DNA of 64,000 nucleotides, from the NCBI GenBank assembly GCA_964397015.1, contig CAYNHL010000002.1:201-64200 (forward strand). The letters are read 5' to 3'. A program made the position numbers and the translations under genes. The first letter of the stretch is position 1; each line of letters begins with the position of its first letter. The notes under the pieces were generated by a model. The model did not search any database, was not told where the DNA came from, and was given only the letters and a program-made list of their open reading frames with translations. The DNA is from an uncultured Desulfobacterales bacterium (GTDB lineage: Bacteria; Desulfobacterota; Desulfobacteria; Desulfobacterales; Desulfobacteraceae). Positions 6,769 through 11,937 of the stretch are shown piece after piece.

Positions 6769-7644
6769 ATGAAAATAAAAAAAGCGGTTTTTCCGGTTGC
6801 AGGTCTTGGGACCCGTTTTCTTCCGGCCACTAAGGCAATGGCAAAGGAAATGCTTCCCGTCGTGGACAAGCCCATTATTCAGTATGCAGTTGAAGAGGCT
6901 TTTGAAGCGGGTATCGAACAGATAATCTTTGTTACCGGCCGGGGTAAAAAAGCGCTCGAGGATCATTTTGACCGGTCCTTTGAACTCGAGCTGAGTTTAA
7001 AGGAAAAGCAGAAACTTGATTTGCTCAAAATGGTGGAAGAACTTGTCCCTACAACCGGAACCATTATTTATACCCGCCAGAATCAGCCTCTCGGGCTGGG
7101 CCATGCCATCTGGTGCGCCAGGGATATTGTCGGAGACGAGCCCTTTGCCGTTCTGCTGGCCGATGATCTGATACAGACAAACGGCCGGCCGGTGCTGTCT
7201 GATATGGTTGAACGTTTTGACCGGCTCAGGGCGTCAATGGCGGCTGTCATGGAGGTGGAAACCGATCAGACCGACAAATACGGCATCCTGGATGCGGTAA
7301 AAACAGAAGAACAGATCTACCGGATCAATGACATGATTGAAAAACCACCTCCTGAGAAAGCGCCTTCCAACCTGGCCATTATCGGCAGGTATATCCTGAT
7401 GCCCAAAATATTCGAGTTTCTTGGCAGAAAACGCCCGGGAGCAGGAGGTGAAATTCAGCTGACAGACGCCATGAGGCTGCTGTTAAAGGAGCAGCCGGTT
7501 TACGGTTATAAATTTGAAGGACTGCGGTTTGACTGCGGTGACAAGGCAGGTTTCCAGATGGCAAACCTGGCCTTTGCCATGGAACGGCCGGATATCCGGG
7601 ACCGGCTGATCAAATTTATAACGGAAATGAAACAGACGTTTTAA
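6769..7644 (+). CDS. galU: UTP-glucose-1-phosphate uridylyltransferase
   Basis: MKIKKAVFPVAGLGTRFLPATKAMAKEMLPVVDKP is the GalU signature. I moved the start to the ATG at 6769, which is preceded by AAGGAG. The track ORF starts at 6697. Confidence 0.9.
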   Translation: MKIKKAVFPVAGLGTRFLPATKAMAKEMLPVVDKPIIQYAVEEAFEAGIEQIIFVTGRGKKALEDHFDRSFELELSLKEKQKLDLLKMVEELVPTTGTIIYTRQNQPLGLGHAIWCARDIVGDEPFAVLLADDLIQTNGRPVLSDMVERFDRLRASMAAVMEVETDQTDKYGILDAVKTEEQIYRINDMIEKPPPEKAPSNLAIIGRYILMPKIFEFLGRKRPGAGGEIQLTDAMRLLLKEQPVYGYKFEGLRFDCGDKAGFQMANLAFAMERPDIRDRLIKFITEMKQTF

Positions 7645-8219
7645 GTTTTTTTGATGTTGCTGTAAATCCTCATGACCTTTTCCACGTACTGGCGGGTTTC
7701 GGAAAACGGGGGGATGGACCGGTAGCGGTCCACTGCATTCGGTCCGGCATTGTAGGCTGCAAGCACCAGCGGCAGCTTGTTGTTGTATCTATGGAGAAGC
7801 TGCTTGAGGTACAACGTGCCTCCCATGATGTTCTGGGAGGGATCGAAAGGGTCTATCACATTCAGGCTGGTATAGTTCTGGGGCATGATCTGCATGAGTC
7901 CCTTGGCCCCTTTGCGGGATACGGCCCCGGGATCGAAGCCTGATTCCACCTGTATCACCGCCTTGACCAGTGAAAAATCAACCCCGTATTTATTACTGGC
8001 TTTCTCTATGATGCTGTCATAGGCCGTATGGTGGACAGGCCGGGTTCCATATTCGGATTTTTCTTTGATATAGAGCTTGTAGTTGCTGGAAGTCGGTACA
8101 TTTGTGAAGTGAACGACCCCGCTGCTGTCAATGTACTTGTAGATATCTGCGCGGCAGGGACCGGTATGGATAAATGCCGGCAAAAAGACCACCAGGGCTG
8201 TCCAGAACATTTTTTTCAT
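7641..8219 (-). CDS. Secreted lytic transglycosylase (SLT domain) with N-terminal DUF4124-like segment
   Basis: Signal peptide MKKMFWTALVVFLPAFI. SLT catalytic motif VIQVESGFDPGAVSRKGAKGLMQIMP and the AYNAG motif. Confidence 0.85.
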   Translation of the reverse strand: MKKMFWTALVVFLPAFIHTGPCRADIYKYIDSSGVVHFTNVPTSSNYKLYIKEKSEYGTRPVHHTAYDSIIEKASNKYGVDFSLVKAVIQVESGFDPGAVSRKGAKGLMQIMPQNYTSLNVIDPFDPSQNIMGGTLYLKQLLHRYNNKLPLVLAAYNAGPNAVDRYRSIPPFSETRQYVEKVMRIYSNIKKT

Positions 8220-8226
8220 TTATTTT

Positions 8227-8601
8227 TCACCTGCTGCACACGTCTTGATACTTTTTCAAAACCAGCTTCAGTGCAAAGACAGGTTTTTCGATATAGGGTT
8301 TTATATTGGCTAAAAAGGCTTTTTGCATGTCATCAAACACCCGGTCTTTTTCATGGTCCATGATCATGTTTCTTGTCGCGGTGTACTCATAGGTGACACA
8401 ATTTCCCAATTTATTGATTATATCATCCGGATCCAGTGAATTCAAACGGTTTCCTTCAAACAGGTCCCTTGTGACCGGAACACTCATGGAGGCTTTGAAT
8501 TTTACTACAAAGGTGTCGGCGGCAATTTTCCTGGATAGATCTTCGATTATCAGCATGTAACCGCCGGCCAGCATAATTGTCTGTACAATGTTTTCTTTCA
8601 T
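8227..8601 (-). CDS. Hypothetical protein (124 aa)
   Basis: The ORF is packed between the helicase fusion (1 nt gap) and the SLT gene (7 nt gap). No motif recognised. Confidence 0.5.
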   Translation of the reverse strand: MKENIVQTIMLAGGYMLIIEDLSRKIAADTFVVKFKASMSVPVTRDLFEGNRLNSLDPDDIINKLGNCVTYEYTATRNMIMDHEKDRVFDDMQKAFLANIKPYIEKPVFALKLVLKKYQDVCSR

Positions 8602-8602
8602 T

Positions 8603-11600
8603 TTATGGTTCCGTTTTTTTGTCTGTCATGTTATGGCCGGCTCCAAACAGATCCATCTGCCTTGCCGCCGGAGCTGTTCTGCGTTTCTTGTATTCAGGCC
8701 GGACATATTGTTTCAGCCGGTCCTCCACATCTGACAGAAATGTGGACCTGTTCTGTTTTTGTTCAAGGCCGAATATGCGTCTTTTTTTTGCATAAGTCAA
8801 ACAAAGAATCCTGCGGGCACGGGTCATGCCGACATAAAACAGGCGGCGTTCTTCATCGATATCATCCGGTTCGTTTCCCGGTCTTGCGTATGGGATCAAT
8901 CCCTGCTCGCACCCGGTGATGAATACCACCGGAAATTCGAGTCCTTTTGATGCATGAAGGGTCATGAGGCTGACTTTTTCCACACGGGTATCGATCTGGT
9001 CCGGGTCCTGGTTCAATGCCAGCCGGTCCAGGAACAAGGGTATGTCATGGGCATGGCGAAAAGGAAAATCGAGGATATCCTGGTAAGCCGCTGCGGATCT
9101 GTCATTGGCCTGGATCAGGTCGTGGAGGCCTGATTTGCGTGCCAGGCAGTCAACTGCCCGGGTAAAGGTTTTTTTTCTGATACTCAAGGCAAGTGCTTTT
9201 AAGAATTCAATTGAGTCTTTAACCCCTGAAGCACAAGCGAGATGTGCATCGACAATTTTATTATCGATAAAAGTGGCCTTGTCATAAAGTACCCGCATAA
9301 GGCTTATCAGTTCGCGGATGCCTTCCTGGGAGAAGATGTCAACCTTGTCGGCTGTCTGGCAGGGAATGCCGTGTTTTTCAAGAGCTGAAAAAAAGGCCTG
9401 CCCTTGTTTCCTTGTCCTGTACAGAACTGCGAAATCGGCAAAGGAAAACTGGTTATCCATGGTGGAATCGGTTTTTGAGGCATCCATGGAAAAAAATGAG
9501 GTTCCGCCGATATAATGTTCAATCGTTTTCCCGACAAAGGCCGCTTCTGCCTGCTCACTTGCGGTTTCACAGATGACCAGTTTTCTGGATGTGGTGTCAT
9601 CGGAGAAAATGGCGGTTTTGGCCCGGCCCGGATCTTTTCCGTTAATCATTTGAAAGGAGGCGTCAAGGATGGTCTGGGTGGAGCGGTAATTCTGTTTCAG
9701 GGTTATTCGTTCGGCATCCGGATGCTCCCGGGTGAACAGTTTGAAATAGGAAGGATCAGATCCCCTGAATCCGTATATGGACTGGTCCGGGTCTCCGATT
9801 ACCAGCAGGCGGCTTTTCCTGCTGATGAGTCTTGTCAGCAGGTACTGGCCCTTGTTGATGTCCTGGTATTCATCTACGAATATATATGAAAACCGGTCCT
9901 GTATCTCTTCAAGTGTTTTCCTTTCAGTCTCGAGGATATCGAGGGTCATGGAAATCAGGCCTTCAAAATCCACCAGGCAAAATGACGAGCACAGTTCTTC
10001 ATAGGTTTTGAAGACAAGTTTCACTGAATCGATCCGGTCTACGGGCACCACGTCGGCAAGGTCATCATCCGCGGACAGACGGTTCTGTTTGCAAAGTCCT
10101 ATCAGGTGGTCCAGGTTTCCGGCCCTGGTCTTGTTGATACGGGCAGCTTCTTTTACCAGCTCTTTTCTGGTTACGTCATCGGCAACGGAAAACGGGGTGC
10201 TCCGGTACTGCCGGAGAAAAGCCAGGCAGAATGAATGAAATGTTCCTGTTTCCACTGCACCGGCTGTTTTGGACAGGTGGGGAGTAAGCCGTTGTTTTAT
10301 TTCATTGGCCGCCTTGTTGGTAAAGGTCAGGGCCAGAATGCGGCTGGGCGGGGTTTTCTTTTCAGATATCAGCCAGGCCATTTTGGCAATCAATGTACGG
10401 GTTTTTCCGGTTCCGGGACCGGCGTTGATAATGGTTCTCCGGGCGTCGGAAAAGACAGCCAGTTGCTGCTCCGGGTTCAGGCTGTCTATCAGGTTGCCGC
10501 CGGTGACGGAACGGGTGGTTTCTTCACTATCCTGCGGCGGTGAGAGCTGTCGTGATTGCCGTGCCACCCGGCTTTTTTTCTGTTTAGTCCCTTGATCCTC
10601 TGCAGGCCGGGCGTTGAACAGCTGCCTGGTATGGCCGGCAGCGGCCTGTCGTTGTTTTTCGGAAAAAAGGACTACCTTGCCGAATTCACCGTCATAGCCC
10701 GGATTTATGATCACGTCCCCGGCACGCATTTTACCGATGGCCAAAGCCAGCAGGGGAATGCTGGTTTTTTCGATATCGGCCAGTGGGGTGTCCAGCAAAA
10801 TTGTCAGCTCCGGCCCGAGCAGGGTAATGGCTTTGTTATAGTAATGTGCCACTTTTTTGGTTTTGGGGCCCTGCATGAAAATCTGGGCCAGGATATCGGT
10901 CAAAGGAATGATGTACCGGAATCCATGGCGGTTCTGTGGCTGATATCCGTCAGGCCTTTGGGCAAGTTCCCGGACACGGTACAGAACTCCGAGGGTCAGC
11001 GGCCGGCCGCAGACAGGGCATCTGCCGCCATGCTCACGGGTTTTTTCAGGATCGAGACAGATCCCGCATTTGCGGTGGCCGTCGTAATGATACTTGCCTT
11101 CTTCAGGATACATGTCCAGCGTACCGCCATAGGCATTCATGTCATGGATGGCCAGTGCCTGGCGAATATGAAAAAAGGATAGCTGCGTCGTGAAAACCGA
11201 GGCGTTTCGCCCCAGGTACATGGGAGAATGGGCATCGGAACAGGAGATCAGCCTCCGGTCGTCCAGCTGTGGAACCCGCCAGTTCATGGGAGGATCGGAA
11301 GAAAGGCCGGTTTCAACCGCAAAAATATGTGAACTCAAATCGGAAAAGCATTCATCGATGGAATCAAATCCTGATTTGGACCCGAAGAGGGAAAACCAGG
11401 GTGTCCAGATATGGGCCGGAACAAACATGCCTTTCTCATTGATTTCAAGCATGATTTCCAGCAGGTCACGGGCGTCCAGGCCAAGAATAGGCCGCCCGTC
11501 AGACTTGATATTGCCGATTTTGTCCAGCCTGGTATCAAAAGAGGTCACACTGTCGATGTCAGGGAAAAAAACCAGGTTGTGGTTTTTCCTGACCTTGTCA

Positions 11601-11902
11601 TTTTTTTTGTAGATGCTGCTGATTTCAGTCTGAAGTATAAAACGGACCCTGCCCCGGCAGGATTTTGGAATTTCCCGGTCCAGCCTGGTTGAAACGGTTT
11701 TTTTGAGTTTGAACAATCCCGGTTCTGCAGGCACCAGTTTCTGCTTGATTTCATCCAGCCAGGCAGGATGGGTAAAATCACCGGTGCCGACAAGCGAAAT
11801 CCCCTTGAGCAGGGCGGCCTGGTAGATGTTTTCCAGGTCCAGATTGCGTGCCGTAGCCCTGGAATACTTTGAATGGATGTGCAGATCAGCTGTAATTTTC
11901 AT
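8603..11902 (-). CDS. Endonuclease Q-like PHP nuclease fused to UvrD/PcrA-type SF1 helicase
   Basis: N-terminal half: DLHIHSKYSRA, GTGDFTHP, PAHIWTPW, SCSDAHSP, zinc ribbon CGICL..CPVCGRPLTLGVLYRV, PGYDGEFGKV. C-terminal half: GPGTGKT, LTFTNKAANE, VDEYQD, GDPDQSIYGFRG, QNYRST, LHASKGLEFP, YVGMTRAR. The start is either ATG 11902 (MKITADLHIH) or TTG 11926. Confidence 0.85.
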   Translation of the reverse strand: MKITADLHIHSKYSRATARNLDLENIYQAALLKGISLVGTGDFTHPAWLDEIKQKLVPAEPGLFKLKKTVSTRLDREIPKSCRGRVRFILQTEISSIYKKNDKVRKNHNLVFFPDIDSVTSFDTRLDKIGNIKSDGRPILGLDARDLLEIMLEINEKGMFVPAHIWTPWFSLFGSKSGFDSIDECFSDLSSHIFAVETGLSSDPPMNWRVPQLDDRRLISCSDAHSPMYLGRNASVFTTQLSFFHIRQALAIHDMNAYGGTLDMYPEEGKYHYDGHRKCGICLDPEKTREHGGRCPVCGRPLTLGVLYRVRELAQRPDGYQPQNRHGFRYIIPLTDILAQIFMQGPKTKKVAHYYNKAITLLGPELTILLDTPLADIEKTSIPLLALAIGKMRAGDVIINPGYDGEFGKVVLFSEKQRQAAAGHTRQLFNARPAEDQGTKQKKSRVARQSRQLSPPQDSEETTRSVTGGNLIDSLNPEQQLAVFSDARRTIINAGPGTGKTRTLIAKMAWLISEKKTPPSRILALTFTNKAANEIKQRLTPHLSKTAGAVETGTFHSFCLAFLRQYRSTPFSVADDVTRKELVKEAARINKTRAGNLDHLIGLCKQNRLSADDDLADVVPVDRIDSVKLVFKTYEELCSSFCLVDFEGLISMTLDILETERKTLEEIQDRFSYIFVDEYQDINKGQYLLTRLISRKSRLLVIGDPDQSIYGFRGSDPSYFKLFTREHPDAERITLKQNYRSTQTILDASFQMINGKDPGRAKTAIFSDDTTSRKLVICETASEQAEAAFVGKTIEHYIGGTSFFSMDASKTDSTMDNQFSFADFAVLYRTRKQGQAFFSALEKHGIPCQTADKVDIFSQEGIRELISLMRVLYDKATFIDNKIVDAHLACASGVKDSIEFLKALALSIRKKTFTRAVDCLARKSGLHDLIQANDRSAAAYQDILDFPFRHAHDIPLFLDRLALNQDPDQIDTRVEKVSLMTLHASKGLEFPVVFITGCEQGLIPYARPGNEPDDIDEERRLFYVGMTRARRILCLTYAKKRRIFGLEQKQNRSTFLSDVEDRLKQYVRPEYKKRRTAPAARQMDLFGAGHNMTDKKTEP

Positions 11903-11917
11903 GGTATAATTCTCGTC

Positions 11918-11937
11918 ATTACTCAACTTTCGGGCTT
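11918..11937 (+). repeat. Copy A of a ~20-nt intergenic repeat (ATTACTCAACTTTCGGGCTT)
   Basis: Read directly from the sequence. The reverse complement recurs at 14653-14676 with a 3-nt insertion. An 18/20 copy lies at 43275-43294. Confidence 0.7.

Follow-up and report, generated by a model that had tools for sequence, protein, structure and literature searches.

An endonuclease Q domain and a UvrD/PcrA-like helicase in one reading frame of an uncultured Desulfobacterales bacterium

Can a single bacterial polypeptide nick DNA at a damaged base and also unwind the strand next to the nick? The question is raised by a gene on the minus strand of a 64,000-nt stretch of DNA (the window; positions 201 to 64,200 of contig CAYNHL010000002.1, assembly GCA_964397015.1) from an uncultured Desulfobacterales bacterium, for which a preliminary description, made from the sequence alone, had proposed an in-frame fusion of an endonuclease Q (EndoQ)-like nuclease with a UvrD/PcrA-type helicase. 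Our analysis confirmed that one protein comprises a complete EndoQ module, a disordered linker and a complete UvrD/PcrA-like superfamily 1 (SF1) helicase. As to its function, sequence comparisons make it fairly probable that this long-form EndoQ joins a lesion-specific Zn/PHP nuclease to a dedicated UvrD-like 3'-5' helicase, tethered to the beta clamp, for the repair of deoxyuridine (dU), deoxyinosine (dI) and apurinic/apyrimidinic (AP) sites.

A nuclease, a linker and a helicase in one frame

The minus strand between positions 8603 and 11926 forms a single open frame of 1107 codons, free of stop codons between the two modules. This frame reaches upstream to a TTG at 11926, eight codons beyond an ATG at 11902. 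Since the database copy (P0002, 1099 aa) and all the relatives begin at the matching methionine (M-x-F/I-x-A-D-L-H-I-H, in fused and non-fused proteins alike, with K or R given for the second position), the true start is probably the ATG; the open frame given in the preliminary description stood, while its TTG start is probably wrong. Residue numbers hereafter are those of the 1099-aa version.

An assembly or sequencing error, or a read-through that joins two neighbouring genes as in a pseudogene, would also produce one long frame, and both the draft state of the source genome (342 contigs, 94.8% complete), in which the fusion gene is present in one copy, and the occurrence of split gene pairs in other phyla speak for such an explanation. 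It is contradicted by the continuous stop-free frame, by a linker region that can be aligned among relatives, and by the identical architecture of at least 8000 database proteins of independent source, found in a word-indexed search for long relatives and including proteins from complete 5-6 Mb genomes and from the cultured Desulfobacula phenolica and Desulfobacter vibrioformis. Given this unbroken frame and the same single-frame layout in thousands of independent assemblies, the arrangement is neither a chance product nor a sequencing artefact; a frameshift or gene merger was rejected, its probability being negligible, and the in-frame fusion is borne out.

Concerning the N-terminal half, the NCBIfam profile TIGR00375 was matched across its whole length (2-374 of 374; E 4.8e-49, 167.7 bits). 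In a search of solved structures, the PfuEndoQ entries (5zb8, 7k30-7k33) were the sole matches (E 3.7e-44), query residues 10-420 aligning colinearly with Pfu residues 2-382. From an alignment (A1) of 66 fusion proteins, AlphaFold2 gave a model with a predicted local distance difference test score (pLDDT) of 75.3, which Foldseek matched to PfuEndoQ 5zb8/7k30 with template modelling (TM) scores of 0.81-0.82 and a root-mean-square deviation of 3.9. The metal ligands H8, H10, E76, H84, H139 and D193, plus H195, defined in PfuEndoQ (PMC5961232), correspond to H8, H10, E93, H108, H164, D223 and H225, and the lesion-pocket residues T142, E167, G169, L170 and S171 to T167, E197, G199, L200 and S201. 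All these metal and pocket residues are invariant in A1 and in a second alignment (A2), which comprises 21 EndoQ domains of the phylum, stand-alone as well as fused. The motifs GTGD (39-42) and GYDGEFG (402-408) are also those of EndoQ, and precomputed annotations place Pfam PF27218 (MJ0043_C) on the relatives, the EndoQ family being also COG1379. Judged from these matches, a genuine EndoQ homologue of full length occupies the N-terminal ~413 residues, as their reported colinearity with EndoQ had suggested. A generic PHP phosphoesterase was excluded by the full-length match and the conserved pocket residues.

As for the zinc ribbon, all four cysteines are present in the fusion protein, and C279, C295 and C298 are invariant in its relatives. 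C282 (11057-11068, minus strand) gives way to S, R, L or V in 20 of the 66 fusions and in 13 of the 21 mixed forms, while H276, three residues ahead of the first cysteine, is invariant; for this reason, many bacterial EndoQs may use an H-C-C-C zinc site rather than the archaeal C4 site.

The archaeal enzymes PfuEndoQ (PF1551) and TkoEndoQ (TK0887) are similar to the module in three-domain fold, ligands and pocket residues, and likewise carry a clamp-binding peptide on a flexible C-terminal tail. They differ in being stand-alone proteins of ~400-424 aa, with ~30% identity to the fusion, which bind proliferating cell nuclear antigen (PCNA) via a PCNA-interacting peptide (PIP) box; in the fusion protein, an SF1 helicase of ~600 aa lies between the EndoQ core and a terminal motif of the bacterial QLxLF type. 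The EndoQs of Bacillus pumilus and B. subtilis, with demonstrated nicking at dU, dI and AP sites (PMC5961232), are bacterial as well, but short, stand-alone and helicase-free.

The C-terminal half matches the Pfam families UvrD-helicase (PF00580; E 2.5e-61, 208 bits) and UvrD_C (PF13361; E 7e-46, 158 bits) above their cut-offs, and its best solved relatives are PcrA (1pjr, E 2.7e-75) and, by Foldseek, UvrD (2is1, E 3e-33). The SF1 motifs I, Ia, II, III, IV, V and VI, already listed in the preliminary description, are all present and invariant across the relatives (GDPDQSIY 703-710, NYRS 738-741 and HASKGLEF 983-990, besides those in Table 1). UvrD, PcrA and Rep (2is1, 3pjr, 1uaa) have the 1A/1B/2A/2B core and all seven motifs in common with the fusion protein, but its 2B-equivalent stretch is ~50 residues shorter than in PcrA (query 411-492 vs. 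PcrA 403-531), and no alignment extends past PcrA residue 648, the C-terminal domain of PcrA/UvrD being replaced by a basic disordered tail with the clamp motif. Scores against the PcrA, UvrD and Rep equivalog models (320-359 bits) are about one third of the cut-offs (911-1144). By these profiles, the C-terminal half comprises an entire UvrD/PcrA-like helicase of the SF1A group and is not an orthologue of PcrA, UvrD or Rep. The genome also encodes a canonical UvrD/PcrA of 721 aa on another contig, plus AddA-like and other paralogues, which makes the fused helicase an extra, specialised one. AddA, RecB and AdnB likewise combine a UvrD-like motor and a nuclease on one polypeptide, but their nuclease is a C-terminal PD-(D/E)xK domain and they act on double-strand ends, whereas the fusion protein has an N-terminal PHP/Zn nickase, predicted to be lesion-specific.

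Table 1. Coordinates of the fusion gene, its predicted modules and motifs, and the neighbouring genes (window positions), followed by the split-pair loci of other genomes (own locus positions)
Feature	Position	Strand	Basis or remark
EndoQ-UvrD-like fusion coding sequence, 1099 aa + stop	8603..11902	-	Homologues and database copy P0002 begin at ATG
EndoQ module, residues 1-413: PHP-type metal nuclease, Zn-binding and C-terminal helical domains	10664..11902	-	TIGR00375, PfuEndoQ 5zb8, Foldseek
DLHIHS (6-11), with metal ligands H8 and H10 (numbering as in PfuEndoQ)	11870..11887	-	PfuEndoQ alignment; invariant in A1 and A2
E93 and H108 (PfuEndoQ E76 and H84, essential catalytic Zn ligands)	11570..11632	-	Alignment; mutational data PMC5961232
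PAHIWTPW (162-169), ETGLSS (197-202), SDAHSP (222-227), lesion-pocket/metal motifs	11222..11419	-	Alignment; pocket per PMC5961232, PMC8307549
Zn ribbon C279-x2-C282 ... C295-x2-C298 (CGIC 279-282, CPVC 295-298)	11009..11068	-	Sequence; alignments A1 and A2
Junction motif TRQLF, residues 425-429	10616..10630	-	Degenerate version of the clamp-binding motif found at the end of stand-alone EndoQ
Basic low-complexity linker, residues 430-469	10496..10615	-	Predicted disordered, AlphaFold2 pLDDT <50
UvrD/PcrA-like SF1A helicase core, residues 470-1062	8717..10495	-	PF00580, PF13361; PcrA 1pjr; UvrD 2is1
Motif I (Walker A) GPGTGKT, 495-501	10400..10420	-	Sequence; invariant in A1
Motif II DEYQD, 677-681	9860..9874	-	Sequence; invariant in A1
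Motif VI VGMTRAR, 1024-1030	8813..8833	-	T1027, R1028 and A1029 invariant in A1
C-terminal putative beta-clamp-binding motif QMDLF, residues 1082-1086	8645..8659	-	Motif conservation; predicted disordered tail
124-aa protein gene	8227..8601	-	1 nt from the fusion gene
DUF4124-SLT lytic transglycosylase gene, signal-peptide-like N-terminus	7641..8219	-	7 nt from the 124-aa gene
Divergent gene, response-regulator receiver + GGDEF diguanylate cyclase, 549 aa	12024-13673	+
Split-pair loci	L074 5001-8234; L084 1914-5148; L096 4989-7965; L097 5001-7907; L090 5001-7858		EndoQ and helicase genes adjacent

Long and split forms among the relatives

Is such a fusion new? Homologues of EndoQ in Bacillus and Desulfovibrio were already noted by Shiraishi et al. 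2015 (PMC4357722), and, according to Miyazono 2018 (PMC5961232), three EndoQ families were distinguished in a paper of 2017 from their domain organisation. In Shiraishi et al. 2016 (PMC4858679), Suppl. Fig. S1 tabulates the clamp motif for short (405-464 aa) and long (941-1244 aa) homologues, the latter from Desulfobacter curvatus (1084-1088 aa), Desulfobacterium autotrophicum (1156 aa), Geobacter metallireducens and Desulfovibrio spp., as well as Sorangium, Caldilinea, Rhodothermus and Zymomonas. WP_020586011 (D. curvatus, 1088 aa) and WP_015906045 (D. autotrophicum, 1156 aa) have the same length class and order as the fusion protein and a C-terminal QLELF or QLDLF, the fusion differing from the listed long forms by a 13-residue extension past the motif. 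The long bacterial homologues of this list belong to the same family and are most likely orthologues of the fusion protein. The accessible part of the 2016 paper gives only the motif for them and describes neither a helicase nor experiments on them. In the EndoQ papers that were text-searched, the word 'helicase' is never applied to the long-form proteins, and the literature searched holds no description of the helicase module. The long form, which may be family 2 or 3 of the three, is thus already on record, and the gene is an ordinary orthologue of a widespread family, on which the literature searched holds no bench work.

Among the best 120 of the at least 8000 long relatives, all are 972-1169 aa long and carry both the EndoQ (PF27218) and the UvrD Pfam domains, most of them coming from Desulfobacula, Desulfobacter, Desulfospira, Desulfotignum and related metagenome-assembled genomes (MAGs). 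The nearest public relatives share 50-56% identity with the fusion protein. At the level of the phylum, an EndoQ homologue was found in 273 of 401 sampled genomes, where frames of ~410-480 and of ~975-1200 codons both occur. A scan of one genome per species provided 505 relatives; fusion prevails in the closest matches, with 65 of the best 80 fused, 14 short and one masked. The 65 fused proteins span more than 10 phyla, with members in Desulfobacterota, Rhodothermaceae, Caldilineae, Planctomycetota, Myxococcota and Binatia, and also in several actinomycete families, Acidobacteriota, Opitutaceae, Alphaproteobacteria, Bacteroidota and Latescibacterota. Together with the 941-1244-aa homologues in PMC4858679, these counts overturn the earlier premise of EndoQ as a solely stand-alone enzyme.

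The EndoQ domains were further compared in a tree of 101 rows, obtained by a quick search with PfuEndoQ as a long-branched outgroup. The fused or short state changes seven times on this tree, vs. a mean of 24 when the labels are shuffled, and the fusion protein belongs to a clade made up of six fusions from Desulfobacteraceae, which has full support.

Besides fused and solitary forms, split pairs were found in loci from Nitrospirae, Peribacteria, Omnitrophota (two) and Elusimicrobia, in which a short EndoQ gene is directly followed on the same strand by a gene for a UvrD-like helicase of 507-662 aa. These helicases match the helicase half of the present fusion with 269-304 bits, vs. 186 bits for the canonical UvrD of its own genome. 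Both proteins of a pair end in a clamp-type motif of their own, e.g. ...QGTLF in EndoQ and ...QMGLF in the helicase. One helicase lineage is thus either part of the EndoQ protein or encoded directly behind it, depending on the phylum, and the encoding of two functions by adjacent genes or by one gene is classic evidence that they work together.

A candidate clamp-tethered excision mechanism

If nickase and helicase work together, what would hold them on DNA? In PMC4858679, archaeal EndoQ is reported to bind PCNA via a C-terminal PIP box and to be stimulated by PCNA, and bacterial EndoQ homologues to carry a C-terminal consensus for beta-clamp binding. The tail of the fusion protein is predicted to be disordered (pLDDT <50 from residue 1063), and a motif Q[LM][ED][LM]F lies within the last 25 aa of 120 of 121 fusions; most relatives stop at LF, with 13 extra residues following QMDLF in the present protein. 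A second candidate motif is found at the junction, 20-27 residues past GYDGEFG, where stand-alone EndoQ ends. Of 73 fused species, 37 keep its strict form (Qxx[LMIF][FL]) and 65 a loose form ([LMIF]F), vs. 2.1% of background windows. Desulfobacteraceae relatives carry GEKxLLFxLP at this place, and the protein analysed here a degenerate TRQLF.

UvrD-like motors move 3'-5', and they are known to act after nicking, PcrA unwinding after RepD and UvrD after incision by UvrC in nucleotide excision repair or by MutL/MutH in mismatch repair. A cut made 5' of the lesion that leaves a 3'-OH, as PfuEndoQ does (PMC4357722), and a 3'-5' motor together lead to an economical model in which the helicase loads at the nick and displaces the damaged strand. 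The C-terminal QMDLF, and perhaps also the junction motif, would hold the enzyme on DnaN on duplex DNA, and the EndoQ module would flip out a deaminated or missing base (dU, dI, deoxyxanthosine or an AP site). The helicase would then load at the nick on the intact strand, travel 3'-5' and strip away the 5'-ended strand that bears the lesion, and a polymerase bound to the same clamp would meanwhile extend the 3'-OH; repair would be completed by a ligase together with a 5' flap nuclease or an exonuclease. We infer the substrate range, helicase polarity, loading strand, clamp binding and order of steps. The coupling of incision to strand displacement in one polypeptide, put forward in the preliminary description, is strengthened here and, as far as we can infer, plausible.

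A more specific version is that of a two-motif, clamp-holding excision machine born from the fusion of an ancestral gene pair, an EndoQ and a dedicated helicase each with a clamp motif of its own, in which the junction and C-terminal motifs would each fill one pocket of the DnaN dimer, with nickase and motor flanking the lesion; we put it forward tentatively, as a possibility somewhat short of an even chance.

Several points weigh against a coupled, lesion-specific repair enzyme. No biochemical or genetic data on any long-form protein were found in the searchable literature. It is by analogy with UvrD/PcrA that we assign the helicase a polarity and a loading strand. In the AlphaFold2 model, two well-folded modules are seen with no fixed or confident interface (predicted TM score, pTM, 0.48), and a physical hand-off from nuclease to helicase is therefore without structural support. 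In this protein, the junction motif is degenerate and the C-terminal one does not lie at the extreme end. No helicase was found within ~8 kb of EndoQ at 13 solo loci of Desulfobacterota, which makes the helicase an add-on, not obligatory for EndoQ function. Finally, the fusion protein does not reach the curated TIGR00375 cut-off (326.6 bits), and its substrate specificity could therefore differ from that of archaeal and Bacillus EndoQ. The same cut-off is passed by none of the 273 matching genomes of the phylum, so that the profile was evidently fitted to the short forms of archaea and Bacillus.

This last score also bears on the alternative that the nuclease has drifted to 3'/5' end trimming or to flap or R-loop processing, which would turn the protein into an end-processing helicase-nuclease rather than a base-damage enzyme. 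The poorly conserved second cysteine of the zinc ribbon would fit such a drift, as would the nature of PHP domains elsewhere, those of PolX and PolC acting as exonucleases or phosphoesterases. We consider it unlikely, given that every lesion-pocket and metal-site residue of PfuEndoQ is invariant and that the whole three-domain EndoQ architecture is kept (fold TM 0.81). Moreover, Bacillus EndoQ, a diverged bacterial form, shares the activity of PfuEndoQ (PMC5961232). A base-damage nickase joined to a helicase remains the reading that we favour.

Gene neighbourhood and possible place in DNA repair

What do the neighbouring genes add? The gaps of 1 and 7 nt suggest that the fusion, the 124-aa gene and the transglycosylase gene are probably co-transcribed. 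The same order is found in Desulfobacula phenolica, Desulfobacter vibrioformis and one MAG, in which the remaining neighbours are all found again (a thioredoxin-like gene, galU, CxxCxxCC and DHDPS); at more distant fusions, the downstream genes differ. In L023, the closest relative among the MAGs, the fusion is likewise preceded by the divergent receiver-GGDEF gene, whose place is taken by other genes in Desulfobacula and Desulfobacter.

The 124-aa family has one copy in 105 of the 401 genomes of the phylum, and among the genomes compared for position, only the source genome and G206, the single member of its family in the search, have this gene beside EndoQ; the remaining 14 have it on another contig or 63 kb-2.4 Mb from EndoQ. 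The 124-aa protein was consequently rejected as a conserved partner of the fusion. Adjacency limited to Desulfobacteraceae, together with divergent loci at a distance, makes the 'odd operon' of the preliminary description a gene order at the level of the lineage and not a repair module: the order and its short gaps are real, but the order is conserved only within Desulfobacteraceae.

A profile search retrieved at least 500 cluster representatives of the 124-aa family at E <= 1e-3, with an invariant R-N-x-I-M-D-H-E-K-D; the protein itself has no match in Pfam, NCBIfam or PADLOC. Its predicted fold (pLDDT 90.8, pTM 0.81) is a beta-sheet followed by three helices, with no significant match in the PDB (best E 0.04). 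In a genome of the same order (G264, L105 746-2047), a homologue lies directly upstream of an SLT gene, the EndoQ fusion being 2.4 Mb away; because this pair persists apart from the fusion, the 124-aa protein may be a companion of the transglycosylase and not of the fusion. No SLT gene was seen near the homologue in nine genomes of more distant relatives.

The neighbourhood also bears on a role in defence. The helicase half strongly matches the PADLOC model of GajB (PDLC00117, E 6.6e-88), nuclease-helicase fusions are frequent in defence systems, and a review suggests that bacterial EndoQ might also serve in antiviral defence (PMC8307549); the protein could accordingly be an anti-phage or anti-plasmid nuclease-helicase comparable to Gabija GajB or Nhi, attacking foreign DNA with uracil or other non-canonical bases. 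This is very improbable. GajB models are generically UvrD-like, and no GajA or other defence gene adjoins the fusion, which is a single-copy gene in housekeeping synteny conserved across genera. EndoQ is present in most genomes of the phylum and is not patchy, the protein carries replisome-clamp motifs, and the EndoQ-domain tree largely tracks taxonomy within clades. Membership of Gabija itself was rejected, only the hidden Markov model of GajB being matched and the GajA ATPase-TOPRIM partner being absent from the neighbouring genes.

As a repair enzyme, the favoured reading, the long form touches on a stage that the 2015 paper only sketched as 'removal by helicase activity' (Fig. 10, PMC4357722). 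With helicase and clamp-docking motifs built into the same chain as the nickase, it provides a direct answer, open to testing, to the question of what follows the nick. Concerning other enzymes in the genome, the UDG superfamily has only two weak matches, one of which lies inside a 636-codon frame. No match to EndoV (PF04493) was found in the 94.8%-complete genome, and EndoQ may be a main route of hypoxanthine repair in this organism.

At the level of the family, a large group of proteins that crosses phyla is labelled only 'UvrD-helicase domain-containing protein', the usual database name of the relatives, and the value of the present analysis lies in its correct annotation, not in discovery. 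If the two-motif arrangement proves true, the enzyme would be the missing downstream step of an EndoQ-initiated alternative excision repair in bacteria.

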